This document shows, one piece after another, positions 22,686 to 63,254 of a DNA stretch of 64,000 bases. A model generated the notes under the pieces. That model had not been told where the DNA came from, ran no database searches, and was given only the letters and a program-made list of their open reading frames with translations. This stretch comes from a bacterium. Its GTDB lineage: Bacteria > Bdellovibrionota_C > UBA2361 > SZUA-149 > JAEUWB01. Each line of letters starts with the position of its first letter. The first letter of the stretch is position 1. The position numbers and the translations under genes were made by a program. The stretch is taken from assembly GCA_016786595.1 (NCBI GenBank), contig JAEUWB010000035.1:3182-67181 (forward strand), written 5' to 3'.

Positions 22686-22706
22686 CTAACCATTCAGTAA
22701 AATTTA

Positions 22707-23408: not shown

Positions 23409-23454
23409 AAATGCAAAGCACAAGTCGCGCTAAACAACTGATACTTGTATATTA

Positions 23455-36343: not shown

Positions 36344-36346
36344 CTT

Positions 36347-38836: not shown

Positions 38837-38841
38837 CTTTT

Positions 38842-38983
38842 AGACTGAGTGCCAAAATAGCTGTTAATTAGGCTGTAGTTGAGGCACTCAGTCTAATCGT
38901 CCAGTAAACTGATTTTACTGGACAAAATAAATAAATACCCGTTGACGAAAGTTTCGTTAATCGAAAAAACTTTTGGCAACGGG
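38842..38983 (+). promoter_or_regulatory. Structured intergenic region splitting the paralog array: a 12 bp-stem hairpin (AGACTGAGTGCC/GGCACTCAGTCT), a second hairpin (CCAGTAAA...TTTACTGG), and a third (CCCGTTG...CAACGGG) containing a TTGACG -35-like element
   Basis: Read directly from the sequence. This is the only untranslated gap longer than 4 bp among the five paralogs, so it is a probable terminator plus internal promoter. Confidence 0.45.
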
Positions 38984-39009
38984 TTTAGGTAAAGATTTTT
39001 AAAAATAAT

Positions 39010-41145
39010 ATGCCACCAGAAACGGATGGAGTTGCAATTGGTGCTGTAGGGCACTTAATCGCTGCAGTGATGCAGACAGCTGGCATGTATGGCCAGTCTG
39101 AGATTCTTGCGACTATGCAGTTCTGGTTTCAACAAATGGGAGCGCTGATTTTTATTGCTTTCGCAGCAATGGCTCTCGGCCAACTTGTCATTTTTGGATC
39201 CTATCGCGGCGCGCTTTGGTTTGTGATCGCGCCTGTTCTCTTTCAATATGTAATTTTCTCTAAGCAAAATGTTGAGCTTACCAATTGGAAGTTTGGTAAC
39301 CGTTACGGTGAGAATGCCGGGCTAAATAGTGGAGAAGAGGAGTCAAAGGCTGCGATTGAGGAAAAGCTCAAGGAACTTAAGGTAGAGCTTCCAGAAAATG
39401 GAACAGCCTACTTATCGAATATATTTGTTGAATTTGACAAAGCAGTTTCTGCTATCGTGCAAAACACAGTAGCATTTCTAGTCGACCAAGATCGCCAAAG
39501 CGACCTTAAGTTTGTTGCCCGCATGAAATTATTCGAATCGCTCTTTCAAGAGCGACCCAATAGCGCAGGCTTGCATGAACTGATTATGACGGGTCTTGTC
39601 GGTGAGTGCGGGCAAGCGACAAATAATATGCAATCGCTCTCAAGTATTAAAATTCTAGAAGAGAAAGCCCGTGCTAAGGGTTCGAGTTTAGATCCGAAAA
39701 TTTTAGAACAGAAAAGCAAACTCGAAGAAGAACAAGCTCGCATATTTAGTGACCGCAAAGTGCAGTTTTCACGACCAGTTTGTCAATACTTGCAAGACTT
39801 ACAAGGTTGCTTCATTGGCAGCAATTTTCAGGAATTAAATTGCACACGTCCGGACTTGTACGGCTGCTATGAGCCACTATCCTACCTGCGCCCGAGTGAA
39901 CGCGGGAGTCAAGACTCGGCATCATGTAGCGACGTTTGGAAATATGTTTTCTTAGGTACATACCAGGAAGCAAAATATAAATTTGAAAAACTTGCTAAGG
40001 AAAACACCAAGCTTGGGTTGAAATGGGAAGACTTAGCAAAAGAAGTCTTGGAGAAAATTCCAGCCACTGGGGAGATTGATAATCCTGAAGTTTCTTCAGC
40101 AGCGTTTCAAGTGATTGCCGGACATTTACTACAGAACCATGTGCTGAGAACTCCTCACGGCGCATTAACTAGTGGCCTTTATGGTCGTCTGACTGAACAC
40201 TCGCAGATGACTAGTGAGATATTTGAATGGGGACAAGATGCTGAATCAATCGGGGATCAAGCATACTTATTAACGCTCAGTGGAATGCTACCTTATATTC
40301 AAGGTGTGGCCTTGTTTCTACTGTCGATTACTTTCCCATTCTTTGCGTTGTTCTTATTAATGCCAGGAAGAGTGAATACATTTTTCATGTGGCCTGCAAT
40401 GTGGATTTGGGTCAAGTCTTGGGATATTGGCTATGCACTTGTGCACATGATCGAGCAGCTGCTTTGGGAATTCATGCCGCATGTTGTACGTAGTGAACTT
40501 AGTGCTTACACAGCAGACTGGACGAATCCGAATTCAATTTGGACCACAATCTTTAGCAATGACCCAGTTTATTCGCCGAATTTATATTACTCCGTTTTAG
40601 GCGTATCGACTTTAGCAATTCCGGTGATCACGGCCCACCTGACCATGGCCAGTACTGACTTACTTGATGTATTTAACTCACGCCTGTCTTCATATGGCTC
40701 TCGTGTTCAAGCGCGTCAAAAGAACGTCGAGCGTAACCGCTTAGGAGGAACTCGAGATAATGAGTGGAAAATGGCTACTGGTGAAGCATGGGATAATGCA
40801 CGTGTCGCCTTAATGAAAAGTGAAGCTGGTAAAGCTAAGAAAAAACAAGGCGATGGTCTTTATGCCCGCTACGTCGATGCTAAAGCAAATCTTGCGCGTT
40901 TTGAGCGCAGTCACGATGATGACATTATTTGGCAAAAATCTTCAGCCAATATGCTGCGGGGTGCTCGTAAGATGAACTACAGCGCTAAATACACACAACA
41001 AGCAATCGATTCAGAAGCAGAATTGTATATCCAGGAAAAGGGATACGAGAGTGGCTTCTATGGATCAGAGAATTACGATACTACAGCGACGAATGCAGAT
41101 GCTTCAGTTTCGTCGGGTGGTGATAATGATGGTTCTGGAGAATAG
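39010..41145 (+). CDS. Tandem paralog 3 of 5 (711 aa)
   Basis: VGHLIAAVMQTAGMYGQSEIL, TM (IFIAFAAMALGQLVIFGSY), LPYIQGVALFLLSITFPFFALFLLMPGR...WPAMWIWVKSWDIGYALVHMIEQLLW. Confidence 0.7.
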   Translation: MPPETDGVAIGAVGHLIAAVMQTAGMYGQSEILATMQFWFQQMGALIFIAFAAMALGQLVIFGSYRGALWFVIAPVLFQYVIFSKQNVELTNWKFGNRYGENAGLNSGEEESKAAIEEKLKELKVELPENGTAYLSNIFVEFDKAVSAIVQNTVAFLVDQDRQSDLKFVARMKLFESLFQERPNSAGLHELIMTGLVGECGQATNNMQSLSSIKILEEKARAKGSSLDPKILEQKSKLEEEQARIFSDRKVQFSRPVCQYLQDLQGCFIGSNFQELNCTRPDLYGCYEPLSYLRPSERGSQDSASCSDVWKYVFLGTYQEAKYKFEKLAKENTKLGLKWEDLAKEVLEKIPATGEIDNPEVSSAAFQVIAGHLLQNHVLRTPHGALTSGLYGRLTEHSQMTSEIFEWGQDAESIGDQAYLLTLSGMLPYIQGVALFLLSITFPFFALFLLMPGRVNTFFMWPAMWIWVKSWDIGYALVHMIEQLLWEFMPHVVRSELSAYTADWTNPNSIWTTIFSNDPVYSPNLYYSVLGVSTLAIPVITAHLTMASTDLLDVFNSRLSSYGSRVQARQKNVERNRLGGTRDNEWKMATGEAWDNARVALMKSEAGKAKKKQGDGLYARYVDAKANLARFERSHDDDIIWQKSSANMLRGARKMNYSAKYTQQAIDSEAELYIQEKGYESGFYGSENYDTTATNADASVSSGGDNDGSGE

Positions 41146-41147
41146 GC

Positions 41148-43577
41148 ATGCCGGATCCAGTCAATAGCATCGAATCAGGATCTTTAGGAACAGCAGGTTC
41201 TCTGATTGCTGCCGCCTTGGAAACTGGCGGGCATTATCTCCAATCCGGAATAATTGATACTTTCTCGCAGGGACTTTCCAATGAAATTGGCGCCGTGCTC
41301 TATATCGCTGCAGCAATTGGCGCAATTATGACTGTTGCCCTTGGCGGCAGATATCTGCACGCAATGTGGTTTATCGCTGGGCCAATTCTTTTTCAAGCAG
41401 TTGTTTTTTCGCGCACCCCTTCAATTGGCCCATCCTTTTCGATGGGGCAGCGGCCAATTACCATGGACGAGAAAAAAGCTGCGTTGAATGAAGCGATTGA
41501 TAGCCCCTCGTTGGAACTGCTCAAGCAAGCGAAAGTTTCAGTGTTTTTTAGCACCTGGGTGCAAATTGTAGATAGTGTCAACCAGGGCTTGATTAAGGTT
41601 ATTTTTCAAATCAAGGATCAAGATCAATTACAATTCTTATTACAAAGCCAAATTTATGCAGCGATGCTCAATTCCCGCATTGAAGATCCTGCACTTCAAA
41701 CATTAACAAAGCTTGTCTTGCTCAAAGAATGTGCTCCCTATGTATCGGCCGCAAGAAGTGCTTATGACGATAACTTAACTACTAAAAATCAACTCGAAGC
41801 TCAGGGTTTAATGCGGGATTATGGGGCCTTCCCTGTGTCTTTAGATACGCACCCGTATTTAAGGCAGTTTATGGATTCACCTTTTGCAAAAAGCATGTTC
41901 GAGAATCCTAACGCTGAGTGTAAGGACCCACACATCGCAGGTAAAACAAATATAGCCTGCGCTGATATTTGGAATTTGGCATTTTGCTCACTGAAGCAAG
42001 AAGCGCGCAGAATGGTGCTAGATACGATGAGCTCAGTGCCGCAAGAAGTGACAGATGCATCTGTAATGCAAGCGATTTTAAAAAAGCTAAACCCTGACAC
42101 TGCGGCGCACACTCCTGCTGAGCAATTTAACATTGTCTATAATGCAGTTGCTGCACGGATGATGAATAAAGCATTGAAGGAATTGAATCCAGGCTCGCAG
42201 TATTTGCTTGCCGACCGGGATTTTAAGCTGGCCAATGATCAAGTTTTTTCGGTCAATAAAATTGTTTCCAAAATTAACGTTCCAGAACGCTATAAAGGTG
42301 TCGGTGATTTTCTTGAGGCGATGTTAGCTCTGCCCTATGTGCAAGGCATGCTTCTATTTTATTTGTCACTTGCCTTTCCATTTTTTGCTTTAGCTTTGAT
42401 CATTCCTGGTAGATATGAACTTTTCTTGGCTTGGATGGCTTTGTGGGCATGGGTTAAATCTTGGGATGTTGGCATGGCAGCAGTCATGCTCTTAGAGAAA
42501 ATTCTCTGGTCAACCTTGCCCGGCACTCACGCAATTGATGATCGTTTTGCCGAAGATCCGGGGCTAGTCTTTAAGCAGGTGCTAGGGTCAGATCCACTTT
42601 ACTCGATGAATACGCATTATCTAATTATTGCTGGAGCGATGGCCGCAGTGCCAGTGTTGACGGGATTTATCGTTAAACGCGGAGCCGGTGAAATTATTGA
42701 TGCTGTTGGCAATAGTATGGGTAAGTTTGCTGGCCGCATCGGTAACGCAATGCGCGACTACGAATCTTCGATTCACGCCCAGAACGAAGTTGCCTTGATG
42801 GCTAAGAAAAAAGAAGATGCCGTGATGGCAGCCCGTGGCGGAGCATTTGCCCGCGCCTCAGACGCTTACGAGAAAAGAATGGTCCTTAGTAGCGCAAGCC
42901 AAGCCTCGAAAGGTGGTATTGTTAATAATGTCTTGATTAATCCTAAGTCAGTGCTGCAGGGACAATCTACTAAGAGCGCCAATATTGCCGGTTCAATTAT
43001 GGACTTTGAAATGGCGAATAACGTCTATAAGGCAAGTATCTCTAAAGATGTCTTAAAGCATGCTTGGAGTGCGGTCTCTTACGGTTGGTATAACCACGAT
43101 TTCCAAGACGAGCCGGTCTGGGATTACAAACGTAAATTCGAATTGGCGAAACTAGGTCAATTTGAGCGTAAGGGATATTCTGAACCTTTTAAGTGGTTTA
43201 CCGATGTGGCTTATCAAGGGAAAGAAGTGCGAGGCGTAGGAGATATTTATGCACAAATTCCGCGAGAACTCACTGTGATGGCTGGGTTGTTCAGTAGTGG
43301 GAGTCCCGCGAGTTTCGTATTGCAGCCATTGTATACCCACCAAATTACTTCGACGATTGCGCACGAACAGCGCCCAGACCTACGCCGCGATGGTATGGAC
43401 TTGGCTAACGTTGTCCAACGCAGCACTTACTCAGGGACTCGTATTGATGGAGGGGATATCATGCTCGGTCGATCTGAAAATCGCATGACTAAGTATCAAG
43501 ATCGCGCTGAAAACGATCAGTATATCGCCTATCAGAGAAAATACTTAGGCACTGGTGGGGGAATTGAGGGAAGGTAA
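41148..43577 (+). CDS. Tandem paralog 4 of 5 (809 aa)
   Basis: GTAGSLIAAALETGGHYLQSGII, TM (VLYIAAAIGAIMTVALGG), LPYVQGMLLFYLSLAFPFFALALIIPGR...WMALWAWVKSWDVGMAAVMLLEKILW. Confidence 0.7.
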   Translation: MPDPVNSIESGSLGTAGSLIAAALETGGHYLQSGIIDTFSQGLSNEIGAVLYIAAAIGAIMTVALGGRYLHAMWFIAGPILFQAVVFSRTPSIGPSFSMGQRPITMDEKKAALNEAIDSPSLELLKQAKVSVFFSTWVQIVDSVNQGLIKVIFQIKDQDQLQFLLQSQIYAAMLNSRIEDPALQTLTKLVLLKECAPYVSAARSAYDDNLTTKNQLEAQGLMRDYGAFPVSLDTHPYLRQFMDSPFAKSMFENPNAECKDPHIAGKTNIACADIWNLAFCSLKQEARRMVLDTMSSVPQEVTDASVMQAILKKLNPDTAAHTPAEQFNIVYNAVAARMMNKALKELNPGSQYLLADRDFKLANDQVFSVNKIVSKINVPERYKGVGDFLEAMLALPYVQGMLLFYLSLAFPFFALALIIPGRYELFLAWMALWAWVKSWDVGMAAVMLLEKILWSTLPGTHAIDDRFAEDPGLVFKQVLGSDPLYSMNTHYLIIAGAMAAVPVLTGFIVKRGAGEIIDAVGNSMGKFAGRIGNAMRDYESSIHAQNEVALMAKKKEDAVMAARGGAFARASDAYEKRMVLSSASQASKGGIVNNVLINPKSVLQGQSTKSANIAGSIMDFEMANNVYKASISKDVLKHAWSAVSYGWYNHDFQDEPVWDYKRKFELAKLGQFERKGYSEPFKWFTDVAYQGKEVRGVGDIYAQIPRELTVMAGLFSSGSPASFVLQPLYTHQITSTIAHEQRPDLRRDGMDLANVVQRSTYSGTRIDGGDIMLGRSENRMTKYQDRAENDQYIAYQRKYLGTGGGIEGR

Positions 43578-43579
43578 GT

Positions 43580-46378
43580 ATGGCAGACCCTGTCTCAGTT
43601 GGCTCATCAGCATTAATGGTTGCTTCAGCTCTGGAGACTGCTGGTTATTATTACCAGTCCTATGTGCTTGATTCATTCAGCTCTACAATCATGGGGCCAC
43701 TTGGTGCGATTGCCTTTATTGTTGCAGGGATACTAGCAATTACTCAGTATGTTGTTGCCGGTGAATATAAGGCTTTTCTTTGGTTTGTAGTTGGTCCGGG
43801 GTTATTAGCAGCTGTTATTTTGACGCGCGAACCTACGACAGGCTCAAATTGGATTTTTGGCGATGAAGCTCGCGATCAAGCCGAAAAAAATGAAGTGATC
43901 CAATCAATCACAACAATCGATAATACAAATACCCCAAAAGTTTCTTCTTTCTTTGCTTGGTACAATAATTTAACGAGCGAACTTGTGCGCTCAATTGTTA
44001 CAAAACTAGTAGAGCAGCGTCAAAAAGCGGATATGACCTTTGTCGCGCGCACGCAGTTGCTACAAACTGCCGTGACTCAATCGATTTCAGATCCGCGCTT
44101 GAGTTCCATGATTCACGCAGGTCTTTGGGGACATTGTGGTGAGCTTGCTAAGGCCGCAAGGCAAACTCATCTTGCCAGCCTTGGTGATCGTGGCGCTGAT
44201 CCAAAGGGTGAGTATCAACGCTTTTATAGTCAAAATAAAGATCAAGAAATTGTTCCCTATAGTCAATACACAATTGATTATTTGGTTTCGCGTGCTGATC
44301 CTGCGAATCGTGCAAATGTGGCAAAAGAAGCGCAACGATCGTACTCCTGCCAAGAAATTTGGGATTTAGTTTACGAAGATCTCCTAGATCAATCAGCTCA
44401 AATCCAGACTCGCTTAACTGAGCGAGCCAAGTCCTTAGGTATCCCTGAGGAGAAATTTGAGGCAGATCTAACAAAAGCTCTAGGCGGCATGACTGCTGAC
44501 GATCCAAATCGTGGGCATGAACTGCATCAAGTATTAGCTAAGCATTTATTGAAAATTGAGTCGCACAAGGGATCAAGCGCACGCTATCCTCAAATGCTTG
44601 CGCGACAAGGTGGCGAAGCGGGCTCTGTTGCTAAGGTAGAACGCATGAAATGGTCGGGCCGCGAGCAAGAGCATAAAAGTAGGCTGGTCACAACTGCGAT
44701 GACGCTACCATACTATCAAGGGCTAATGCTTTACTTCTTGGCCTATACTTTTCCATTCTTTGCGATCCTTTTAGTGATCCCTGGTAAGTATACGGGCGCG
44801 TTAATGTGGTGCGTGCTCTGGTTGTGGGTGAAGAGCTGGGATATTGGCTATGCTGTTGTAATGATGCTTGATGATATTCTGTTTGGAATGTTTGCAGCTA
44901 ATCAAGATCCTACGGCATCGCAATTTTCCAATGATTTGGGCACCGTGATGGCCAGTCTTTCGGCATACGACCCGACGATGAATTTATCGACTTATTATTA
45001 TATTGTGGGCGTTTGCTTTTCTACTATTCCGGTGATCATGGGCTATATGGTGATGGGTGCGGCGAAAGGCGGAGCCCAGCTGATTGAAAACGGCGCAAAA
45101 ACATATGCGACTTCAATCGGAACTGGTGCTGGGTTATCGCAAAACCAAGGCCAGAACTTACAACTTCGCGCAGGAGAATTTAGAGCAGCAACGAATAATA
45201 TTTTTAACCGCTTAAGAAATGACAATGCGAAAACTCGTAATGACATGTCAGATATGGAATATCAGTCGCGCAAGGGTGGACTGCCAATAATGCCCAATAA
45301 CCGCGTTGATTCTATTAGTGGGCGCAGCATTCAGCAGTTGAAAGATGATTTTGTGTATTGGAGTGCTTGGGAGGGAGCGTTTGAAGGGTATAAAGGAAGC
45401 GGCCTTGTGCGTAAATTCGCAGGAGATTTAGGCATTGCTGGAAATATCGAGACTCCTGGGAAGGACGCGCAAAATGTGGATGTTGACAACGCATTAACTC
45501 CAATTACTTTTGCAACCCGCCGCTTAGCAGGAACAGCCTTACCAAAAGTAGCATTTGAGAAAGAATCTGCTTACAAGCATATGCAAGCTCGAGTTGGGCA
45601 AGTTATTGCCGAAGAAATGTTTGACTATTCACTTTCTTTTGCAGGCATGGCTCATGCGCAAGACAGACGCGTTTATCGAGGCTTTGAATTGCCATCGGCA
45701 TATGACGATCCGGGCGAAAGTATTTACGCCGCTAGAATGGTTAAAGACCAACGGTTAATTGAGAGCGCTAAGGCAATTAGTAACACGGGATTCAATCTTA
45801 CTCGCGGTGGCGTGCAGTTTATCGAGAACTACGGTAAAGGCAAAAAAATGCGAGGTAGCGTAGATAAGGCGGGTAAAAAAGGTGGGGGCTTCGGAGGTAA
45901 AACTAATGGCACCCCTCTCATCGGTGGACAGCTTGAGCCAATTTTTATTACATTAGGCGTAGCTGATCAGCTAGAAATGGGAGATTTCGGCTACACTCCA
46001 AACCAACACATGGACATCGCACTGGATCAACAAACTTTCCATGACAATGCAATTGGCAGTGGTCCAGGAGGACGTGCTCCGGAAATGCCTGGTTATGCAG
46101 GAGTTGTTGAGAAAGTGGTCGGATCAAACCTACAAGATTGGAACCAGCGTTCTTATGGGACAATGGATTTAAGTGAAGCTTCAATCGCGGAGCGTAAGCA
46201 CGTAACTGCACGCTTAGAGCAGGCAATCGACGATGCTCGGCTTGGTAACCGCGAGGCTGATATAGCTAGAAACTTGTTAGCAGATCGCTACACTTCGATG
46301 GCGGATTTGAAACAATCCTTAGATCGCCTACTTGAGGAAAATCAAAAACTCGCTAAGACGGAAAAATCCGGCAATTAA
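43580..46378 (+). CDS. Tandem paralog 5 of 5 (932 aa)
   Basis: SALMVASALETAGYYYQSYVL, TM (AIAFIVAGILAITQYVVAGEY), LPYYQGLMLYFLAYTFPFFAILLVIPGK...WCVLWLWVKSWDIGYAVVMMLDDILF, long C-terminal soluble domain. Confidence 0.7.
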   Translation: MADPVSVGSSALMVASALETAGYYYQSYVLDSFSSTIMGPLGAIAFIVAGILAITQYVVAGEYKAFLWFVVGPGLLAAVILTREPTTGSNWIFGDEARDQAEKNEVIQSITTIDNTNTPKVSSFFAWYNNLTSELVRSIVTKLVEQRQKADMTFVARTQLLQTAVTQSISDPRLSSMIHAGLWGHCGELAKAARQTHLASLGDRGADPKGEYQRFYSQNKDQEIVPYSQYTIDYLVSRADPANRANVAKEAQRSYSCQEIWDLVYEDLLDQSAQIQTRLTERAKSLGIPEEKFEADLTKALGGMTADDPNRGHELHQVLAKHLLKIESHKGSSARYPQMLARQGGEAGSVAKVERMKWSGREQEHKSRLVTTAMTLPYYQGLMLYFLAYTFPFFAILLVIPGKYTGALMWCVLWLWVKSWDIGYAVVMMLDDILFGMFAANQDPTASQFSNDLGTVMASLSAYDPTMNLSTYYYIVGVCFSTIPVIMGYMVMGAAKGGAQLIENGAKTYATSIGTGAGLSQNQGQNLQLRAGEFRAATNNIFNRLRNDNAKTRNDMSDMEYQSRKGGLPIMPNNRVDSISGRSIQQLKDDFVYWSAWEGAFEGYKGSGLVRKFAGDLGIAGNIETPGKDAQNVDVDNALTPITFATRRLAGTALPKVAFEKESAYKHMQARVGQVIAEEMFDYSLSFAGMAHAQDRRVYRGFELPSAYDDPGESIYAARMVKDQRLIESAKAISNTGFNLTRGGVQFIENYGKGKKMRGSVDKAGKKGGGFGGKTNGTPLIGGQLEPIFITLGVADQLEMGDFGYTPNQHMDIALDQQTFHDNAIGSGPGGRAPEMPGYAGVVEKVVGSNLQDWNQRSYGTMDLSEASIAERKHVTARLEQAIDDARLGNREADIARNLLADRYTSMADLKQSLDRLLEENQKLAKTEKSGN

Positions 46379-47447: not shown

Positions 47448-47891
47448 TTAACTCATTTTGCTAGGGAAATTATGCAGGGCTTTCTTGAGTTGTTCTGGTA
47501 AAGGGCAAATCTCAAATTCATGAGTTGGGCTTGTTTTTACAAAAACGTGCTTGGTGCGCCCATGGTGTAATAAATCTGTAATTGCAGATTTGCGTGAAGA
47601 GAAAATATTATAATTTGCTTGAAAGCTCGCTTTGCCGATTTCAGAAAAATATAATTCAACTACTAATTCGTTACCGTAGCGAATTGGTTTTTTATACTGT
47701 AGCTCTGCGTCAATGACCGCCAAGTGATAATTTTCTTTTACTAAGTCCGAGTAGGGCAGGGCGATTGAGCGCAAAAAATCTTCGCGCGCACGTTCGTAGA
47801 TTACAAAATAATTTGCGTGGTAAAGCACTCCGCCTAAATCAAAAAGACCAAGCTGAAGATTGTCGATCGTTGTGATGAAGGGCTGGTTCAA
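47448..47891 (-). CDS. Hotdog-fold acyl-CoA thioesterase (YbgC/4HBT-like)
   Basis: LGLFDLGGVLYHANYFVIYERAREDFL pattern typical of 4HBT thioesterases. 147 aa. Confidence 0.6.
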   Translation of the reverse strand: MNQPFITTIDNLQLGLFDLGGVLYHANYFVIYERAREDFLRSIALPYSDLVKENYHLAVIDAELQYKKPIRYGNELVVELYFSEIGKASFQANYNIFSSRKSAITDLLHHGRTKHVFVKTSPTHEFEICPLPEQLKKALHNFPSKMS

Positions 47892-47930: not shown

Positions 47931-48137
47931 TTAAATATCTTTTTGCGCAGTTTGAATTAAACGCAATGATAAATTGTGATCTGTTTGCGGAATTTCTCCG
48001 CTACTGTATTTCTCTACTAACTGCTCACGCGTTAATTCTAAATCACTAGAGCGCGTATTATCTCTAGTTGTTAAGACAGCAGAAAGTGCAATTACAAGCA
48101 GTGCTGATCCTAAAACTATTGAGAGATGATTTTTCAT
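47931..48137 (-). CDS. Small secreted hypothetical protein (68 aa)
   Basis: Signal-like MKNHLSIVLGSALLVIALSAVL. ORF only. Confidence 0.3.
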   Translation of the reverse strand: MKNHLSIVLGSALLVIALSAVLTTRDNTRSSDLELTREQLVEKYSSGEIPQTDHNLSLRLIQTAQKDI

Positions 48138-48251: not shown

Positions 48252-48923
48252 TTAGTCTGATCGCTCGGGATGAATGAAAATCCAAAAAATAAAAAAGCCT
48301 GTCAAAAATCCTCCGATGTGGCCCCACCATGCAACATTCTCCTGGCCGGCAGCAGCACCAAGCTGGCTGCCAGCAAGAATCTGCGCAATAAACCAAACAG
48401 CGATATAGAAAAATGCTCGAATTTGAATGAAGTAGGGAATGATAATGATAGGGATCACAGTAATGATTTTTGCCCCGGGATACATAAACGCATACGCAGC
48501 TATCACCCCTGACACAGCCCCAGAAGCTCCAATCACAGGCATGGAGGAATTCTTAAATACCACTGCATGCACAATCCCTGAACCTAAGCCGCAGAGAATA
48601 TAGAAGAAAATAAAGCGCCCAACCCCCATGCGGTCTTCGACATTGTCGCCGAATAGGTGCAAGGTCCACAGATTAAGCGCTAGATGTAGCAAGCTCCCAT
48701 GTAAGAAAAGACTCGTCAGTAAAGGGAGGAAGCGACTCTGCCAGCTTATTGCTTCAGCAGTCAGGAGTTCCCTCGGAACTAGCGCGTATAATTTAATCGC
48801 GTCTTCAATCGATCGCTTGTCTAATGTTGTTTCCCAGAAAAATACTAGTATATTTATAATAATTAATGTCCAAGTCGCCGCAGGGAAATTAGATGGACGC
48901 TTATTGTCTCGTAATGGGAACAT
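48252..48923 (-). CDS. Rhomboid family intramembrane serine protease
   Basis: Catalytic GASGAVSGV (GxSG) in a TM helix and a downstream HIGGFLTGF histidine helix. Six TM segments. Confidence 0.8.
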   Translation of the reverse strand: MFPLRDNKRPSNFPAATWTLIIINILVFFWETTLDKRSIEDAIKLYALVPRELLTAEAISWQSRFLPLLTSLFLHGSLLHLALNLWTLHLFGDNVEDRMGVGRFIFFYILCGLGSGIVHAVVFKNSSMPVIGASGAVSGVIAAYAFMYPGAKIITVIPIIIIPYFIQIRAFFYIAVWFIAQILAGSQLGAAAGQENVAWWGHIGGFLTGFFIFWIFIHPERSD

Positions 48924-48947
48924 GCCTATGCCTTATACGAAGAAAAT

Positions 48948-49580
48948 ATGTTTAAGCACATAAAAAATATACTGATTTTGATGATTGCGACGGTTTTGCT
49001 GGCCAGTATTTTTATTGGACCCGAGCTCGTTACCGAATATCTGCCGCGCTTAATCTTCAAACGAAATTTTGCAGAAATTATCCCAGGAGAATTTTATCGA
49101 TCAGGGCAAATGTCACATCAACGGTTGGCCCGCACAATTACAAGCAATAAAATCAGAACAGTCCTGGATTTGCGTTATGGAGAAGACGACCCAGAAGCAG
49201 ATGGCAAGCGTGAAAAAGATATTGTTGCGGAACTCGGCGGCAAATATCTCCATTTCCCACTGCGCGCATCCCGCCGTCCAGAGCAGAAAACGATTCAAGA
49301 ACTCATTCAAATTTTAGACACGCTAGAAAGCCCGGTGCTTGTGCATTGTAGTGACGGAGCGCATCGCACCAGTGTCGTCAGTGCGATTTGGATGTTAACC
49401 CAGGCGCATGAAGATTTGAGTCTAGCACTCGAGCAAATGAGTCCGCGTTACGGTTTTGTCAAAGCGGAACGCCAGTTTGCTGAATTCTTAAATGGCTACC
49501 CGACCATCGATGATTTGATTTGGGATTATCAGCAAGAAACAAACGGTCAAATGCCCTTTCGTGAATGGGTCGCGAAGTAG
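48948..49580 (+). CDS. Membrane-anchored protein-tyrosine/dual-specificity phosphatase-like protein
   Basis: CX5R active site VLVHCSDGAHRTSVV. N-terminal TM helix. Confidence 0.7.
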   Translation: MFKHIKNILILMIATVLLASIFIGPELVTEYLPRLIFKRNFAEIIPGEFYRSGQMSHQRLARTITSNKIRTVLDLRYGEDDPEADGKREKDIVAELGGKYLHFPLRASRRPEQKTIQELIQILDTLESPVLVHCSDGAHRTSVVSAIWMLTQAHEDLSLALEQMSPRYGFVKAERQFAEFLNGYPTIDDLIWDYQQETNGQMPFREWVAK

Positions 49581-49593
49581 GGGGGTGATGCTG

Positions 49594-49637
49594 CTTCGGC
49601 TTAGGCTTGCACTGCTCCTTATCCTTACTCTTAACCT
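49594..49637. repeat. Repeat family B, reverse-orientation copy upstream of the four-helix-bundle gene
   Basis: CTTCGGCTTAGGCTTGCACTGCTCCTTATCCTTACTCTTAACC (rc about GGTTAAGAGTAAGGATAAGGAGCAGTGCAAGCCTAAGCC). Confidence 0.5.
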
Positions 49638-49700
49638 GCTGTTTTCATAAATTTTCGCTTCATTTCCGCAACAAGCACACAGAAACGGAGGAATATAGAT

Positions 49701-50078
49701 ATGGAGGCAATTGCATCTATGTTCAGTCATCAAAAATTATATGTATATCAAAAGGCTATAACTTATTTTTCAAAAATTGCAGACATTCTTGTCCAAATTC
49801 CACCGGGGAACAAAGACATCGTAAGCCAGTTGAGGAGGGCAGCGATCTCAATAGCGCTTAATATTGCCGAAGGTGCAGGTAAGACAAGTTCTATGGATAA
49901 AAGACGTTTTTATTCGATAGCACGTGGCTCTGCTTTAGAATGTGCTGCGATATTTGATTTATTGGTTATCTTGAAGCTTTCAAGTGAGGAAGAATTGAGC
50001 GAATGTCGCGCACTTCTGAGCGAAATTGCGTCAATGTTTTCAGCTATGACACAGGTGAACAAAAAGGTCGAAGGCTAA
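49701..50078 (+). CDS. Four-helix-bundle protein (TIGR02436 / S23p type, the family typically encoded inside 23S rRNA intervening sequences)
   Basis: YQKAITYFSKIADIL...LRRAAISIALNIAEGAGKTSSMDKRRFYSIARGSALECAAIFDLL is the characteristic pattern of this family. The stop codon lies inside the downstream family-B repeat. Confidence 0.75.
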   Translation: MEAIASMFSHQKLYVYQKAITYFSKIADILVQIPPGNKDIVSQLRRAAISIALNIAEGAGKTSSMDKRRFYSIARGSALECAAIFDLLVILKLSSEEELSECRALLSEIASMFSAMTQVNKKVEG

Positions 50079-50103
50079 GGGGAAGTTCAAGCCTAAGCCT
50101 AAG
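50073..50103. repeat. Repeat family B, forward copy immediately downstream of, and overlapping the stop of, the four-helix-bundle gene
   Basis: GGCTAAGGGGAAGTTCAAGCCTAAGCCTAAG. Confidence 0.55.
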
Positions 50104-50123
50104 AGACAACCTTCGCACTGAGT

Positions 50124-52001
50124 CTACAACTCAACCTGCAAGCCAATTTCCAAAACTTGATTTGGTGGAATCTTGAAATACTGCGTTGCGGGCTGCGAAT
50201 TACGCTGCAAGAAAGCAAATAATTTCTCGCGCCAAATTGCCATGCCCGGACGCGGGGTCGCAAGTAAAATTTCGCGCCCAAGAAAGAATGTCACTTCCTC
50301 AGTGCGCACTTCTAAATCGTGAGCGAGGCAGGCACTTAAGATATTCTCAATTGAGGGTTTTTGCATGAAGCCATAACGTGCCAGAATCCGATAAAAGCCG
50401 TGATCGAGTTGTTGAATCGAAACTCGTTCGTGAAATGGGATTACTGGAGTTTGTTCGAAAAGCACTGTAATAAAAAGAACGCGCTCGTGTAGCACTTTGT
50501 TATGACGCAGATTGTGCACTAATGCTGGCGGGATACCTGAAGTCGAGCCAGTCATGAAAATTGCCGTCCCGGAAACTCGCGAAATCTGACGTGTTGGAAG
50601 TTCGCTGAAAAATTTATCAAGCGGCACGGTCTGTTCACGCAGGCGTTCAGCAAGAATACCTCGACCGCGTTGCCAGGTTGTCATCATTGCAAAAATTACT
50701 ATGCCTGTAACCAGCGGGAACCAGCCGCCATCTGCTATTTTTAAACAGTTGGCCCCGAGAAATAAGAGTTCAATTATGAGTATTGGTAAAATTACAACTA
50801 TCGACTTGACCCATGACCATTTCCAGACTCCACGCGTCACGTAGAACATCATTGATGTTGTTAGCACCATCGTCAATGATACTGCTACGCCATACGCGCC
50901 AGCAAGTGCGCTTGACGTGCGAAAGGTTAATACTAGCCAGAGCGTGGTAACTAGTAGGGCAGTATTTATCGAAGGTACGTAAATCTGGCCGATTTGCTCT
51001 GCTGAAGTATGGGTGACGCGCACACGCGGAAAATATCCGAGTTGAATCGCTTGGCGAGTTAGTGAAAAAACTCCCGAGACGATTGCTTGAGAGGCAATCA
51101 CAGTAGCTGCTGTTGCTAGCGCAACTAATGGAATTAGTCCCCAGGTTGGTGCAAGCATGTAAAACGGATTCTTAATTGATAAGGGATCGTGCAAGAGTAG
51201 TGCTCCCTGGCCAAGATAGTTTAAGAGCAGTCCAGGCAGGGCAAAGAAAAACCAGCCATACTTAATAGGAATCCGTCCAAAATGTCCCATGTCGGCGTAG
51301 AGCGCTTCGCCACCAGTGACCACTAGAAATACTGAACTGAGCAGAAAAAAAGCGTGAGCTGGATCATCAAGTGCTAGTTCAATGGCATAGCTTGGATTGA
51401 AAGATAAAAATACTGAAGGCTCTTTGAGAATCCCGTAAATACCTAAAAGTCCCAATACCGCGTACCAGAGGATAATGATTGGCCCAAAAACAGTCCCAAT
51501 CCGTGCCGTGCCGAAACGTTGACTCATGAAAAAGAAAAGTAAAATTAGAATGGTAATGCCGATCACATATTTTTCGAATACTGGTGTAACAATTGCTAGG
51601 CCTTCAACTGCGCTGAGCACTGAGATTGCCGGAGTAATTACTCCATCACCAAAAAGTAAGGCAGTTCCAAAAAGTCCCATGACAATAATGCCCACAGTCA
51701 GAGTCGAATGGTCGCGCGGCTTGGCCAGGGCCATTAACGCCAAGATTCCGCCTTCACCTTGGTTATCGGCACGCATCACAAAAGTTACATATTTAATGCT
51801 GATCAAAATAATTAAAGACCAGATAATTAAGGAGAGTACCCCGAGTACATGGCTAGGTGTTAAACTTAATCCATGTGCTTCGGAGAAGCATTCCCGCATC
51901 GCATATAATGGACTGGTTCCGATATCTCCGAAAACAACTCCCAGCGCTCCGAGGGTTAGTTCCCATGTTGTAGTTTTAGATTTTTGATTATTATCTGACA
52001 T
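50124..52001 (-). CDS. kup: KUP/HAK/KT potassium uptake transporter
   Basis: 625 aa, 12 TM segments, N-terminal LTLGALGVVFGDIGTSPLY signature of Kup. Confidence 0.9.
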   Translation of the reverse strand: MSDNNQKSKTTTWELTLGALGVVFGDIGTSPLYAMRECFSEAHGLSLTPSHVLGVLSLIIWSLIILISIKYVTFVMRADNQGEGGILALMALAKPRDHSTLTVGIIVMGLFGTALLFGDGVITPAISVLSAVEGLAIVTPVFEKYVIGITILILLFFFMSQRFGTARIGTVFGPIIILWYAVLGLLGIYGILKEPSVFLSFNPSYAIELALDDPAHAFFLLSSVFLVVTGGEALYADMGHFGRIPIKYGWFFFALPGLLLNYLGQGALLLHDPLSIKNPFYMLAPTWGLIPLVALATAATVIASQAIVSGVFSLTRQAIQLGYFPRVRVTHTSAEQIGQIYVPSINTALLVTTLWLVLTFRTSSALAGAYGVAVSLTMVLTTSMMFYVTRGVWKWSWVKSIVVILPILIIELLFLGANCLKIADGGWFPLVTGIVIFAMMTTWQRGRGILAERLREQTVPLDKFFSELPTRQISRVSGTAIFMTGSTSGIPPALVHNLRHNKVLHERVLFITVLFEQTPVIPFHERVSIQQLDHGFYRILARYGFMQKPSIENILSACLAHDLEVRTEEVTFFLGREILLATPRPGMAIWREKLFAFLQRNSQPATQYFKIPPNQVLEIGLQVEL

Positions 52002-52066: not shown

Positions 52067-53053
52067 ATGAAGTCAGTAACATTTTCATTTCGCACGGAAA
52101 CAGCGCTTTTTTCTTTGGCCTTTGGCGGGCTGCCACTGCGTGAGCAGGCGTTTAAGGGGGCAATGCGCTACTGGTATAGGGCCTTCTGTGCTTCTGCTTA
52201 TAATCTTAAATCTCTTGCGCATAAAGAGTCGCAAATTTTTGGCTCTAGTGGGAGACAAGGCCAGGCCACGAGGGGAGTGCGTCTCCAACTAATCCGACCA
52301 AACGTCCTGCCCCAAGAAATCTCGCCACAGCCACACAAGGAACGGGTTAAACCTTTGCGCGCCTTGCCAGCGCGGCATGAATTTCAACTTGTGTTATCAC
52401 AACCACACTCGATGCGTGACGAGGATTTTCTAAAAGCCTGTGCTGCACTTTGGCTTGCTGCTACAATCGGTGGATTTGGTCGGCGTTCGCGACGTGGAGC
52501 GGGAGGAGTGCGGGTTATTTCAATCTCAGGTTCGTATCAACTGAACTTGCCAGTAATCCATCAGCAGTGGTCGAGTGACGAACTTAAGAATGCATTAAGT
52601 GCCGGTTTAATTGAAGCCAGAAAAATATTATTCGAAGGCGGAAAAAATATTGAAACTCCCAATCAGTTGCGCGGCGATATCCCACAACTGGTTAGCGGTA
52701 AAGATGGTTCGCATATTATTATTTCTGACCTCGGCCCTAGTAGCGAAGCCGAAGCGCGCGCTAAGCTCATGCTTAAGTTACGGCAATTTAAAAACCAAAT
52801 TTTTGGTTTGCCGTTGAAGATCAATCAGGGAGAGAATGGAGCGCAGGCAGAACGAAAAGAGCGCTTCAGTCGAGAAGGTTCCAAGCGTTATGCATCACCA
52901 GTATGGATCAGGCTAATTGAGTTAAAGAGCGGGTGGACAATGATTGTCACACTCTTATTGCCGCTGCCCCGAGTTAAAACGGCCAATCGAGATAAGCTAG
53001 ATGAATTTTTAGCTGCGCTCAAGCAGAACCGTAAAGAGGTTGCAATTCCATGA
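52067..53053 (+). CDS. cmr1: Type III CRISPR RAMP protein, Cmr1-like
   Basis: N-terminal TETALFSLAFGGLPLREQAFKGAMRYWYRAF matches the Cmr1 LFxGG...RxxSxKGALRFWFRA signature. QIFGSS block. Gly-rich loop GGFGRRSRRGAGGVRV. First gene of a four-gene operon with overlapping stops and starts. Confidence 0.6.
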   Translation: MKSVTFSFRTETALFSLAFGGLPLREQAFKGAMRYWYRAFCASAYNLKSLAHKESQIFGSSGRQGQATRGVRLQLIRPNVLPQEISPQPHKERVKPLRALPARHEFQLVLSQPHSMRDEDFLKACAALWLAATIGGFGRRSRRGAGGVRVISISGSYQLNLPVIHQQWSSDELKNALSAGLIEARKILFEGGKNIETPNQLRGDIPQLVSGKDGSHIIISDLGPSSEAEARAKLMLKLRQFKNQIFGLPLKINQGENGAQAERKERFSREGSKRYASPVWIRLIELKSGWTMIVTLLLPLPRVKTANRDKLDEFLAALKQNRKEVAIP

Positions 53054-53844
53054 GCGAGAAAACAGTTTTTATTCATGCCTTAACGGGCATTGGCTCGACC
53101 GGTGAGAAAACTGCAAGCCTGACTTATCTACCACGCGCGGCCATGGAAGCGGCCATAGACACGGATTTAAAAATTCCAGTCATCAGAACCTCAACCTTAA
53201 TGCGGGCGTTGCGGCATGCTAAAATTACAATCAATCCTGAGAATATTTCTTATGACCCGAGCTTATTGCTTTTACCGGTGCGCACCCCCGCGGGACTTTT
53301 TGCCTGGATCACTTGTCCGGCAGCGCTCGGGAAAATGAAATTACTCGGGTCGAATAGCAATCAAACGATCCAAGGCTTTACTTTTAATCCTGAAGTTCAA
53401 GCTTACGTTACACGGTCGTGTCAAATTTTACTCGATCGGGAATTAATAATTGAAGAATATTTCTTACGTTCAAAATACAGTAATGAACTTGATGTGATCG
53501 CGCTTGAACTTGCAAAAAATATTTTTTCTGACCCAGGATATGAATGGTGGCAAAAGAAACTCCAAATGGATCTCGTTGTCGTCAGTAACCAAACCTTTGC
53601 TGCAATGCTGCAAACGGCCCTGGAAATACGCGCACGTGTTGCCGGCAATTCCGCTCAAATCGCAAGGAAGACTCCCTACCTCTACGAAGAGCTATTTCCA
53701 GCAGAAGCGGTGCTAATTACCGCTTTAGCTGCAGAAAACTTGCCAACAGAGACAAAATTAATTGAACTCGGGAATAATCTTAGCACCGGACGAGGGCTAT
53801 CTCGACTAATTATGAGAGCAAGTAGTTATGACCTTGGAGCATAA
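53050..53844 (+). CDS. cmr4: Type III CRISPR backbone RAMP, Cmr4
   Basis: Start overlaps the cmr1 stop (ATGA). Cmr4 signature blocks: LLLPVRTPAGLFAWITCPAALGKMK (thumb region: L.PVRS..G.FAyvTSP.vL.R), ARKTPYLYEELFPAEAVLITAL (gaLfyeE.lPaesvfy), and terminal Gly-rich loop ELGNNLSTGRGLSRL. The N-terminal IPVIRTSTLMRALRHA corresponds to the IPGSSLKGVLR block but is divergent. Confidence 0.65.
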   Translation: MSEKTVFIHALTGIGSTGEKTASLTYLPRAAMEAAIDTDLKIPVIRTSTLMRALRHAKITINPENISYDPSLLLLPVRTPAGLFAWITCPAALGKMKLLGSNSNQTIQGFTFNPEVQAYVTRSCQILLDRELIIEEYFLRSKYSNELDVIALELAKNIFSDPGYEWWQKKLQMDLVVVSNQTFAAMLQTALEIRARVAGNSAQIARKTPYLYEELFPAEAVLITALAAENLPTETKLIELGNNLSTGRGLSRLIMRASSYDLGA

Positions 53845-54259
53845 AACAGCTGATCGCGGAACTGCGGTAGTTGCTGCGGCAGACAATTTATTTTCTGCTG
53901 CACTAAAGCGCCGAAAATCTGGCGCAACTAAAGCGCTGATTTATCGTATGCCGGTTGTGATTGCACGCCATGGTATCGGACAAGCTATTGCTGAATTAGA
54001 GCAGAGTCCAGTAGGTAAAATGGTTCGACATTATTTAGGACTTTGGATCTGTGAACAAGCAGGAAGCGATGCTCAAAAGCTTAAAAATTTTCGCACTGCA
54101 GCTTGGGAAAGCGATTCGCAGTTGGTAATGTCAATCACTAGCGCAGCGCTCAAATTTTTTGCCCTGCAAGCTCAGCAATTCACGCAAGTGCAGACTGATT
54201 TGCAGGAGAATCTGGAAAGTCCCGAACAGACAGCCACAATTGATCAACTAAACGAGTAA
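53828..54259 (+). CDS. cmr5: Small alpha-helical subunit, Cmr5-like (143 aa)
   Basis: Overlaps the cmr4 end. All-helical, right size, and MPVVIARHGIGQAIAEL resembles the Cmr5 aPVmIlsnGLlQTLAFL block. Weakest of the four assignments. Confidence 0.45.
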   Translation: MTLEHKTADRGTAVVAAADNLFSAALKRRKSGATKALIYRMPVVIARHGIGQAIAELEQSPVGKMVRHYLGLWICEQAGSDAQKLKNFRTAAWESDSQLVMSITSAALKFFALQAQQFTQVQTDLQENLESPEQTATIDQLNE

Positions 54260-54280
54260 CACTGAACGAGTAAGACTGAG

Positions 54281-55498
54281 ATGAGCGAAAAAACAGGCAA
54301 GATCATTAGCTATAATGCTGCCAACAAAATGGGAGAAATCGCTTTTGCCGGTTTTGATGTCCCTGCGCGGTTCTATCTTTCTGTTGTTACGAACCCGACA
54401 CCTGAACCAGTTAAGGGTGACCAAGTGAGTTTCGCAGCAGCAGATCCGGTAAAAAATAAAAAAGGAAAATACTCGCCTGTAACTGCAAGTACGGTAACTA
54501 TTACTGAGCGTTCTCCCGTACGGGAAGAGGAGAAAAAATTTGATGCAACTGCTCAAAGTTTTCGCACGACACTGCAGCGTGGAGCTCGTAATGACCGCTC
54601 CAGAAACAACCGCACAAAATCAGCTTCAAAAATTTCGCAGCAAGCTCAAGAATTACGTGTGATCCCTAAGCGACAACTTTCGCTACGCATTGCCCATGAT
54701 GCAACTCCACTGCCGCGTGATATGCGTCGACGTATGGTCAATTGGGGCACTGCTAATCCAGCTTTTTTGCTAGCAAAGGGCATTTCCTGGAAGCATGCTG
54801 AAAATAATGAATTTGAGCGTAATCGCGATCATTTTCGGCATTTTATGCACAAAACATTTCTGCCGGTTTATCAAAATGCAGTGAAGAATCTTATCCCTTT
54901 AGAGGCACTCAAAACTCGGCAGATCCAAATTTATAAATCCCTACGAACTCAGGGCTATTTACTCGATCATCGTGTTTTAAAATTATCTACACCACTAGTG
55001 CTTGGGCAGAATGCTTCTAGTTTATTACGGCAAATCAGTGTCGTTACTGACCATCTTTATGGTTATCCTGTGGTGCATGGGTCAATGATCAAGGGAACTT
55101 TTAAAGAATATCTACAAAACTTACTGGCTGGAGATCCTGGACTTGCAGTAGCTAGAGATTTTGAACAAATTTTTGGGACAACAGAGGCACCAGGCCGGGT
55201 GATCTTCTTTGATTCTTTTCCTACGCGGGCTTTGCCTGATCTTGGATTTGAAACTCTGCAGGATTCATTCCCTGCTTGGTATCATGGCCGGGGTTCTGCA
55301 GCTGATACTCAGTTACCTGAACGAGACTATCTATCTGTGATTAAACCTGGAGCTGAATATACATTTAGTTTTGCGTTGAGGCCTGGCTCAGAAGAGTCGC
55401 TACTTGGCACGGTAGGGAACTTATTGCAGCAAATGCTTGTTGAGTTTGGGCTGGGATCAAGAACCGCCCTAGGATATGGGCGATTCAGGGTTAACTAA
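54281..55498 (+). CDS. cmr6: Cmr6-type RAMP with an N-terminal cold-shock domain (CSD) fusion
   Basis: aa 1-70 KTGKIISYNAANKMGEIAFAGFDVPARFYLSVV...KGDQVSFAA follows the CspA pattern (GxVKWFNxxKGFGFI...VFVHxSxI...GxxVxF). The C-terminal half has Cmr6 blocks PVVHGSMIKGTFKEYL (pyIPGSSlKGvlR), EQIFGTTEAPGRVIFFDSFP (lFGs...G.v.F.DA.P), DSFPAWYHG (tPHy.pYY) and the terminal Gly-rich loop EFGLGSRTALGYGRFRV. Confidence 0.6.
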   Translation: MSEKTGKIISYNAANKMGEIAFAGFDVPARFYLSVVTNPTPEPVKGDQVSFAAADPVKNKKGKYSPVTASTVTITERSPVREEEKKFDATAQSFRTTLQRGARNDRSRNNRTKSASKISQQAQELRVIPKRQLSLRIAHDATPLPRDMRRRMVNWGTANPAFLLAKGISWKHAENNEFERNRDHFRHFMHKTFLPVYQNAVKNLIPLEALKTRQIQIYKSLRTQGYLLDHRVLKLSTPLVLGQNASSLLRQISVVTDHLYGYPVVHGSMIKGTFKEYLQNLLAGDPGLAVARDFEQIFGTTEAPGRVIFFDSFPTRALPDLGFETLQDSFPAWYHGRGSAADTQLPERDYLSVIKPGAEYTFSFALRPGSEESLLGTVGNLLQQMLVEFGLGSRTALGYGRFRVN

Positions 55499-63000: not shown

Positions 63001-63180
63001 ACTTTTGTCCGTTGATATAGTTTCTTTGTTTATCTAAGTTAAAGAATTTAAAGCAGAGAAACTAGGATATTCTTCGCGAGATAACAAGGGGTGCAAAATA
63101 AGCACTTAACATCGGGTATCTTGTTGAAAACTTTACTCATTCGGCAATCCGTTTTAGATTGCTGAGAAGTGGCAAATGTG

Positions 63181-63254
63181 CGCCCTTAGCTCAGCTGGAT
63201 AGAGCAACTGGCTTCGAACCAGTAGGTCGGGAGTTCGAATCTCTCAGGGCGCGA
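63181..63254 (+). tRNA. tRNA-Arg (anticodon UCG)
   Basis: Cloverleaf folded by hand: acceptor GCGCCCT/AGGGCGC, D-arm GCTC-AGCTGGATA-GAGC, anticodon arm ACTGG-CTTCGAA-CCAGT (UCG), T-arm GGGAG-TTCGAAT-CTCTC, discriminator G. No encoded CCA. Confidence 0.85.

Follow-up and report, generated by a model that had tools for sequence, protein, structure and literature searches.

A four-helix-bundle gene of family PF05635 lies between inverted tandem hexamer arrays, outside rRNA, in a Bdellovibrionota_C genome and in related loci

A 64,000-nucleotide stretch of a Bdellovibrionota_C genome (GenBank assembly GCA_016786595.1, contig JAEUWB010000035.1, positions 3,182 to 67,181 of the forward strand), here called the window, was found to carry a gene whose product is a PF05635 family four-helix bundle in the loop of a long inverted repeat. 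This family is familiar chiefly as the open reading frame (ORF) of rRNA intervening sequences (IVSs) and as a common passenger in cas and other operons; outside diversity-generating retroelements (DGRs), no function is known to us. The segment 49594-50106 (approximately 513 bp) is a compact unit made of a 5' arm, a 59-nt spacer bearing a ribosome-binding site (RBS), the PF05635 ORF and a 3' arm, and both arms are tandem arrays of 6-nt units. Inverted repeats also enclosed the gene in 43 of 72 testable related loci and none of 368 control ORFs. We consider it somewhat better than an even chance (a probability of roughly 0.55) that the unit is a promoter-less compact cassette of IVS-like design, occupying intergenic and intra-operon sites and giving rise to ORF-less derivatives. 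A first-pass annotation, made from the sequence alone, had proposed an IVS-like interpretation of this cassette, and that interpretation was supported.

The cassette and its predicted stem

The features of the cassette and its two neighbours are as follows.

49594-49641, + strand: 5' arm, eight 6-nt units (CTTNNN)8, reading CTTCGG CTTAGG CTTGCA CTGCTC CTTATC CTTACT CTTAAC CTGCTG
49642-49700, + strand: spacer of 59 nt from the 5' arm to the ORF, with GGAGG and no sigma-70-like promoter found
49701-50078, + strand: PF05635/TIGR02436 four-helix-bundle ORF, 125 aa, with an alternative start at 49719
50071-50106, + strand: 3' arm, six 6-nt units (AAGNNN)6, reading AAGGCT AAGGGG AAGTTC AAGCCT AAGCCT AAGAGA
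48948-49580, + strand: PTP-like phosphatase gene (Pfam), upstream neighbour
50124-52001, - strand: kup, gene for a Kup K+ transporter (Pfam), downstream neighbour

The 5' arm begins 14 nt past the stop codon of the phosphatase gene, the 3' arm overlaps the stop codon of the ORF (50076-50078), and 17 nt lie between the end of the 3' arm and the stop codon of the convergent kup gene. An Rfam scan of the window returned no rRNA and one tRNA only. The first-pass annotation had placed the gene between two protein-coding genes outside any rRNA and had described it as flanked by inverted copies of a repeat, family B, the 3' copy lying over the stop codon; the flanking genes, the Rfam result and the arms listed above bear this out. 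The 6-nt periodicity of the family-B arms is a feature that it had not described. No sigma-70-like promoter or intrinsic terminator was found in 48800-50400, and no long direct repeats were found near the PF05635 gene.

The arm segments 49594-49626 and 50071-50103 are complementary over 33 nt (85%) and are 444 nt apart, with a longest unbroken pairing run of 12 bp as read from the sequence. The energy of the arm duplex was -44.9 kcal/mol, compared to -22.6 +/- 4.3 kcal/mol for shuffled partners. In folds of 531, 900 and 1353 nt, the longest of which includes the whole upstream gene, 29 of the 33 arm pairs had P>0.5, and the arm pairing probability was about 0.85 even within a co-transcript with the phosphatase gene. 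The minimum free energy (MFE) fold of the cassette region was closed by the arm stem. The earlier proposal that an IVS-like stem could form in the transcript is therefore upheld by structure prediction.

In the whole window, (CTTNNN) arrays occurred only at 12229, 22613 and 49594 and (AAGNNN) arrays only at 12294, 22652 and 50071, and shuffles gave none of either. The half-site AAGTTCAAGCCTAAGCC had five matches at no more than three mismatches, compared to 0.30 expected. Family B is represented in the 64 kb by three complete copies, two ORF-less and one gene-bearing, whose arms align to one another, and by one degenerate copy. The copies other than the cassette are as follows.

12229-12329, no strand assigned: family-B hairpin lacking an ORF, loop about 30 nt, between a Fic-domain gene (- strand) and a coiled-coil gene (+ strand)
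22613-22693, no strand assigned: ORF-less family-B hairpin with a tight loop (array scan and folding)
23323-23427, + strand: degenerate forward arm of family B with ~54 nt inserted and no convincing reverse arm

The inverted family-B pairs that had been noted elsewhere in the window thus correspond to two ORF-less hairpins, both of which folded better than shuffles on both strands (z -2.6 to -3.2). The second of these lies 13 nt past the stop codon of a peroxiredoxin gene (22707-23258, - strand), before the next gene on the same strand. Another copy had been described at 23323 with an insertion. Its forward arm and insertion are present, but it lacks a convincing reverse partner and is unstructured, since 23323-23427 folded no better than shuffles. 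An exact 17-mer scan for family B in a genome contig collection that does not hold the host genome gave 50 scattered single matches and no family-B hairpins. Adjoining the hairpin at 12229-12329, a Fic/DOC-domain gene (11132-11899) with a small upstream partner ORF (10755-11135) was observed.

The encoded protein

The 125-aa product matched PF05635, 23S_rRNA_IVP (E 1.3e-23; 83.7 bits, cut-off 33.8), and the NCBIfam model TIGR02436, 'four helix bundle protein' (E 8.8e-23; 80.6 bits, cut-off 24), and is a member of the S23p/Avd-like family PF05635. Its AlphaFold2 model (pLDDT 93.4) has helices at residues 14-30, 38-59, 64-90 and 96-117. The best structural matches of the model in Foldseek were 2GSC (XCC0516; TM score 0.82-0.91) and 2RLD ('S23 ribosomal protein family'; TM 0.75-0.89), each with five chains in the structure, followed by entries 4DWL and 8UB7 of the DGR accessory protein Avd (TM about 0.7-0.8), although sequence identity to Avd was only 8-11%. 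The two family models and the fold confirm the S23p-type four-helix-bundle gene that had been annotated at 49701-50078.

Of the conserved family motif GxxRxxxSxxxNxxE (PMC3936711), R46, S50, N54 and E57 are present, and the first motif position is Q43 in this protein and in 36 of 36 aligned homologues. The polar residues Q43, R46, E57, S77 and E80 are invariant, and S50, N54 and R75 are kept in at least 90% of the sequences. No catalytic domain was detected in the helical bundle by Pfam, PADLOC or Foldseek, nor is one known, and the PADLOC defence models gave no match to the protein. A GGAGG at 49687-49691 lies 9 nt 5' of ATG 49701, and a second GGAGG (49703-49707) precedes ATG 49719. The latter may be the true start codon, because the aligned homologues begin at the residue equivalent to Met-7 of the 125-aa protein.

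The family is large, with 7,406 cluster representatives (50% identity) reaching E<=1e-3. Many proteins of about 250 aa among P0241-P0384 hold two tandem PF05635 domains, a fused-dimer form.

Inverted tandem arrays enclose most PF05635 genes of the related loci

The sample consisted of 80 metagenome-contig loci encoding relatives with 39-54% identity in the best aligned segment. A gene was scored as bracketed when an inverted repeat was found between the 250 nt upstream of its start and the 250-300 nt around or after its stop, in ungapped alignment with +1 for a match, -2 for a mismatch and a threshold of 14. Control ORFs were mechanical, of 90-200 aa, and came from random genome pieces and from this window. 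The threshold was reached by the 43 related loci given above, and the window gene itself scored 18. In contrast, the highest score among the 368 controls was 13, and only 3 of 127 ORFs elsewhere in the related loci passed. When mismatches were penalised less, the passes rose to 58 of 75 related loci compared to 10 of 325 controls. A link between this gene family and bracketing inverted repeats is thus general, which answers in part the concern raised with the first-pass annotation, that family B might be a generic repetitive extragenic palindrome (REP) in hundreds of copies with no association to the gene.

The arm sequences varied between loci, each pair was self-complementary, and nearly all arms were tandem arrays. 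Arm self-identity in the related loci was 0.70 at lag 6 compared to about 0.22 at other lags. Strictly periodic arrays numbered 118 per 270 kb of related loci and 8 per 361 kb of control DNA. A best period of 6 or 12 was obtained for 49 upstream and 54 downstream flanks (80 of each), while any period at all was found in only 7 of 300 control segments. The median arm length was 39 nt; the 5' arm ended a median of 34 nt before the ORF, and the 3' arm began a median of 4.5 nt past the stop codon or overlapped the end of the ORF. The arms of the two closest homologues (58-59% identity) were visibly related to family B. No rRNA was present in the 80 loci, and no rRNA-embedded relative was found among them.

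One hexamer column is variable, and the arm mismatches concentrate there (28% compared to 6-9% at the other columns), so that the stems are regularly imperfect. A single universal hexamer unit was considered and dropped: C-N-T fits many arms, and the variable column differs between loci. Coding was likewise rejected as the explanation of the arms, because about half of the ORFs stop before the 3' arm; some do run into it, such as those with (H/Q-E)n tails in a set of cassettes between gap and pgk. A phage origin was rejected as well, since only two relatives were found in 2.9 million viral contigs.

Plasmid-borne copies were collected by a tblastn search of PLSDB, which gave 12 records, and nine copies were examined. 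Eight of the nine were bracketed by inverted tandem arrays with a period of 7 or 8. The copies are as follows.

Nostoc punctiforme NPUN_RS35280 and NPUN_RS33770, and Aulosira laxa NIES50_69540: (TCAGGAG)n paired with (CTCCTGA)n
Anabaena sp. 90 ANA_RS23230: (GGTGACA)n inverted arms
Calothrix brevissima NIES22_67910: (GGGTGTA)n inverted arms
Calothrix PCC 7716 CAL7716_106740: inverted arms, period 7 or 8
Picosynechococcus PCC 7003 AWQ21_RS15215: inverted arms, period 7 or 8, between cas10 and cmr3
Gemmatirosa kalamazoonensis plasmid 1: inverted arms, period 7 or 8
Pseudanabaena galeata pPg_01 OA858_RS22715 (locus L143): about 14 and about 12 heptamer units (CTAAAAG, CCAAAAG), between cas6 and cas4

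The plasmid pANA02 of Anabaena sp. 90 had exactly two period-7 arrays in 50 kb, both bracketing the free-standing gene, and no arrays were found at its DGR avd gene, which stands beside its reverse transcriptase.

These findings show a general architecture, in which a palindrome with short-period tandem-array arms has a PF05635 gene in its loop. A literature search, the coverage of which left out most subscription journals, returned no description of PF05635/S23p genes bracketed by tandem-repeat arms.

Genomic context and ORF-less hairpins

In four related loci (L113, L119, L124 and L132) the cassette lay between gap and pgk on the same strand; the 5' arm directly followed the gap stop codon, the spacer to the ORF was 3-25 nt, and the pgk start followed the 3' arm. 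Where an upstream gene lay within 30 nt of the 5' arm, it was co-oriented with the cassette in 11 of 12 related loci. Three relatives without clear inverted arms followed immediately downstream of same-strand tRNA genes (L095 2631-2897, L126 2672-2744, L128 971-1058), a further kind of transcription unit for stable RNA. This context fits a unit that has no promoter of its own and relies on outside transcription, though some copies are antisense.

Loaded and empty hairpins were found side by side. Solo hairpins of the local arm type stood beside cassettes in L074, L084, L114, L127 and the Gemmatirosa plasmid, and the related locus L079 held two arm pairs of one family.

L079, 2807-2909 and 3346-3448: arms of a full cassette
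L079, 1738-1823 and 2039-2124: second arm pair, 86 nt, 94% complementary, enclosing 215 nt

The second pair encloses a remnant of the 3' end of a PF05635 gene (DQIRPAYDLLARILG) and is a deletion intermediate, indicating that ORF-less hairpins can derive from loaded ones. The first-pass annotation had viewed family B as the terminal repeat of an element with the S23p gene as occasional cargo. The existence of gene-loaded and ORF-less copies agrees with this, but 'cargo' is possibly the wrong word for the gene. Many short contigs ended at arms.

IS5-like transposase genes were observed between the 5' arm and the ORF in three unrelated cassettes (L058 554-1435, L099 296-1042, L106 242-1138), with both arms intact. 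Insertion may favour this site, or the DNA there may just tolerate it.

Proposed mechanism and its weighing

If the unit is a promoter-less IVS-like cassette, it would be transcribed by read-through from the co-oriented upstream gene, and the arms, as predicted by folding, would form a long stem with the RBS and ORF displayed in its loop. By analogy with IVSs, the stem would be a likely substrate of RNase III, and a cut there would release the ORF RNA from its host transcript. The precedent is the Coxiella IVS, in which a 28-bp terminal stem is cut by RNase III and for which protein function and IVS origin were called unclear (PMC4990558). The product, presumably a pentamer, probably binds imperfect stems, either its own or those of ORF-less copies. 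Stem binding is reasonable to infer because Avd, the only characterised relative, grips an RNA stem-loop: in the cryo-EM structure of a DGR ribonucleoprotein, an 11-bp RNA stem-loop is touched by each of the five protomers in the pentamer of Avd, and its flipped-out bases are inserted between protomers (10.1101/2023.10.23.563531).

Copies would probably spread or be lost by recombination or templated repair between arms and not by cut-and-paste transposition. A cut-and-paste transposon or miniature inverted-repeat transposable element (MITE) was rejected, as no target-site duplications were found beyond chance: direct repeats beside the arms were at shuffled expectation in 56 loci, and there were none in the window. 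The 5' arm was pyrimidine-rich in 39 loci compared to 15 with the opposite bias, and T exceeded A in 42 compared to 13 (the loci are not independent). This weak polarity argues that the gene is not randomly oriented in the palindrome and that some strand-specific constraint exists.

Several observations weigh against this interpretation. Isolated arm mismatches were of G:U type in 18 cases and of A:C type in 20 (41 arm pairs with at least 85% identity), and the spectrum over all arms (62 G:U-type, 67 A:C-type) likewise carried no wobble signature; without a G:U excess, pairing in sense-strand RNA is not singled out over a strand-symmetric DNA palindrome. The whole 531-nt fold barely beat shuffles (z = -1.8), and the 6-nt period has no demonstrated role. 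Neighbour orientation overall was near random (18:14 upstream, 16:13 downstream), and one close relative lies antisense inside a type II secretion system (T2SS) operon. Among the plasmid copies, the arrays of P. galeata pPg_01 are direct and not inverted, and the purine/pyrimidine polarity of the arms is reversed in the cyanobacterial copies. Finally, the Fisher p-values for bracketing, about 1e-40 against random-genome ORFs and 1e-20 against same-locus ORFs, are optimistic because the related loci are not phylogenetically independent.

Other features of the window

Downstream of kup, a Cmr-like module was observed at 52067-55498, consisting of a RAMP protein, an unknown protein, Cmr5 and a second RAMP protein. 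No Cas10 was detectable in it by Pfam, nor was any CRISPR array found within 46-64 kb; the module is possibly a type III effector, reduced or orphan.

Five large tandem genes on the + strand (33578-46378; 711-932 aa), each with a weak TraG_N-like match, make up an unusual array of paralogues, putatively membrane proteins for conjugation or secretion. At 63179-63535, a tRNA-Arg(TCG) gene is followed by three tandem units of 94 nt, each ending in a copy of the tRNA 3' end (GAATCTCTCAGGGCGCG); these look like reiterated attachment sites of an integrative element.

Alternative explanations

The alternative that survives best, although we regard it as unlikely, is a gene-repeat partnership at the DNA level, like that of REPs and their RAYT transposases. 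Family B and its counterparts would then be abundant palindromic repeats specific to each genome, and the PF05635 gene, nested in one copy, would encode a factor that recognises such hairpins, in cruciform or single-stranded DNA, and serves to maintain or disperse them; RNA folding would be incidental. The strand symmetry of the arms, with no G:U bias, agrees with such a role, as does the number of ORF-less copies in the window (two hairpins and a half-copy), which is at least as high as that of the single cassette. XCC0516 of Xanthomonas campestris abuts repeat #15 of a 186-copy (GGGAATC)n family (PMC4692102). The conservation of Q43, R46, E57, S77 and E80, together with S50, N54 and R75, suggests a specific binding or active site, and the many contigs that end at arms point the same way. 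However, no catalytic domain is known or was detected in the bundle, target-site duplications were absent, and the only characterised relative binds RNA. The non-random polarity of gene to arm is also not predicted by a purely symmetric role in DNA.

It is improbable that the gene is an accessory of a CRISPR-Cas or other defence locus, working with the nearby Cmr-like module, with the repeats as leftovers of insertion. PF05635 genes have been reported in type I, II and III cas loci, including between cmr3 and cmr2 (PMC3936711), the Cmr-like module begins about 2 kb downstream of the gene, at 52067, and of the plasmid copies one stands between cas10 and cmr3 and another between cas6 and cas4. 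Yet kup, on the opposite strand, separates the gene from the module, no PADLOC model was matched, and most related loci have housekeeping or unrelated neighbours (gap-pgk, T2SS, tRNA genes). Moreover, copies inside cas operons carry arms of the same kind, suggesting insertion into tolerant operons.

Chance placement of a generic REP-like repeat on both sides of an unrelated small gene is very improbable and already contradicted by the comparative data: family B does occur without the gene, its copies being counted within the 64-kb window, but the excess of bracketing over controls holds across relatives with unrelated arm sequences, the arms stand at consistent positions with respect to the start and stop codons, and the only two heptamer arrays in 50 kb of pANA02 flank the gene. 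Least probable of all is a remnant or orphan Avd of a DGR: Avd is a structural relative (TM about 0.7-0.8) and PF05635 in Pfam covers Avd-like proteins (PMC10053308), but identity to Avd is only 8-11%, viral contigs yielded only the two relatives, the true avd of pANA02 is without arms while its free-standing gene has them, and the Pfam scan, which covered the larger ORFs from 41148 to 62997, revealed no reverse transcriptase (for the small ORFs 47448-47891, 47931-48137 and 48252-48923, outside that scan, precomputed Pfam marks give 4HBT, no match and Rhomboid, respectively).

Comparison with known systems

The cassette works most like an IVS, and its gene-repeat relationship is most like that of REP/RAYT. 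In the ORF-bearing 23S rRNA IVSs of Leptospira and Coxiella burnetii, the loop holds an ORF of the same protein family (S23p), ORF-bearing and ORF-less forms exist as they do here, and the size is about 430-750 nt compared to 513 nt. In both, terminal inverted repeats make a long stem, which measures 28 bp in Coxiella (PMC4990558) and 33 nt in the cassette. In contrast, the cassette and the 80 related loci are not in rRNA and stand in intergenic or intra-operon positions between protein-coding genes. Since a location in rRNA was looked for and not found, the element is not classified as an rRNA IVS. The cassette arms are also tandem 6-nt arrays, and excision by RNase III would be expected only by inference. 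To our knowledge, tandem-array stems have not been described for IVSs. PF05635 genes have also been noted in rRNA insertions of bacteria of the candidate phyla radiation (CPR).

With REP/RAYT systems (REPINs) the cassette shares a single gene set between two inverted copies of a palindromic repeat, which is dispersed in intergenic sites and has gene-less copies as well. It differs in that the protein is a 125-aa four-helix bundle whose only match is PF05635, and not a Y1/HUH transposase, and in that the arms are periodic tandem arrays where REPs are unique sequences of 20-40 nt; for want of a Y1 transposase it is not assigned to this class. Avd has the same fold, and its pentamer bound to an imperfect RNA stem-loop serves as the model for the proposed binding of the cassette stem, but the cassette has no reverse transcriptase among the Pfam-scanned ORFs and no template and variable repeats (TR/VR) near the gene, and the avd gene of pANA02 has no periodic arms. 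Because it lacks a reverse transcriptase, the unit is not regarded as a DGR component.

MITEs such as Correia/nemis in Neisseria and ERIC/IRU in enterobacteria are processed in RNA, being co-transcribed and having their stems cut by RNase III or RNase E. Like the cassette they are small, palindromic and intergenic, but Correia and ERIC elements are gene-free and have target-site duplications as well as defined terminal inverted repeats, whereas the cassette has periodic arms and no duplication, for which reason it is not classified as a MITE. An integron cassette is also compact and promoter-less, combines an ORF with an imperfect palindromic site and is expressed from outside. No integrase or attC-type site is present here, however, and the palindrome is split around the ORF instead of lying 3' of it.

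The arms themselves resemble two described repeat groups, the short tandemly repeated repetitive (STRR) heptamers of heterocystous cyanobacteria and the (GGGAATC)n arrays of Xanthomonas. Both are intergenic arrays of 6-8-nt units, often in convergent, hairpin-capable pairs near gene ends in operons, and the heptamer arrays flanking the cyanobacterial PF05635 genes are of the STRR kind. STRRs occur in a helix of RNase P RNA, which would parallel IVSs in rRNA helices; Vioque (1997) is reported to place them within the gene for RNase P RNA in cyanobacteria that form heterocysts. Both groups have been described without a protein link and read as G-quadruplex formers, fingerprinting markers or translational regulators, and they differ from the cassette arms, which have a period of 6 with only 3 of 6 positions fixed. 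Rehm et al. described 186 (GGGAATC)n arrays in X. campestris; 70 cases form convergent pairs, as a rule within operons (gltBD, groESL and atp are examples) and only a few nt away from the end of a gene (PMC4692102). Repeat #15, (GGGAATC)4 at 622956-622983 of strain ATCC 33913, overlaps the start of XCC0516 and is 6 nt from bccP (PMC4692102, S2 Table A). That paper draws no link between the repeats and the XCC0516 protein. With XCC0516 standing beside a repeat family of 186 copies, the gene could be a partner of the repeats and not a passenger.

Significance

Most free-standing PF05635 copies appear to be enclosed by inverted short tandem-repeat arrays, and the family thereby gains a defined nucleic-acid partner. 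We tentatively propose, as a possibility that we hold with less confidence than the cassette interpretation, that PF05635 proteins are cognate partners of genome-specific families of short-period tandem-repeat hairpins, such as family B, the STRR heptamers and (GGGAATC)n. If this is true, an Avd-like pentamer that grips imperfect stems would be encoded within one copy of the hairpin family that it recognises, and such hairpins would settle at the ends of genes, in the spacers of operons and at helix tips in stable RNAs; the classical 23S rRNA IVS would be the copy that ended up in rRNA. One system would then account for both the S23p/IVS protein, without explanation since 1993, and these repeat families, without one since 1990.

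In practical terms, the arms break short-read assemblies and place stable stems in operons such as gap-pgk, like the Xanthomonas arrays in the atp and groESL spacers. The finding suggests an origin or function for abundant, unexplained repeats, such as the cyanobacterial STRR and the Xanthomonas GGGAATC arrays, and rRNA IVSs would become one case of a wider hairpin-cassette element.

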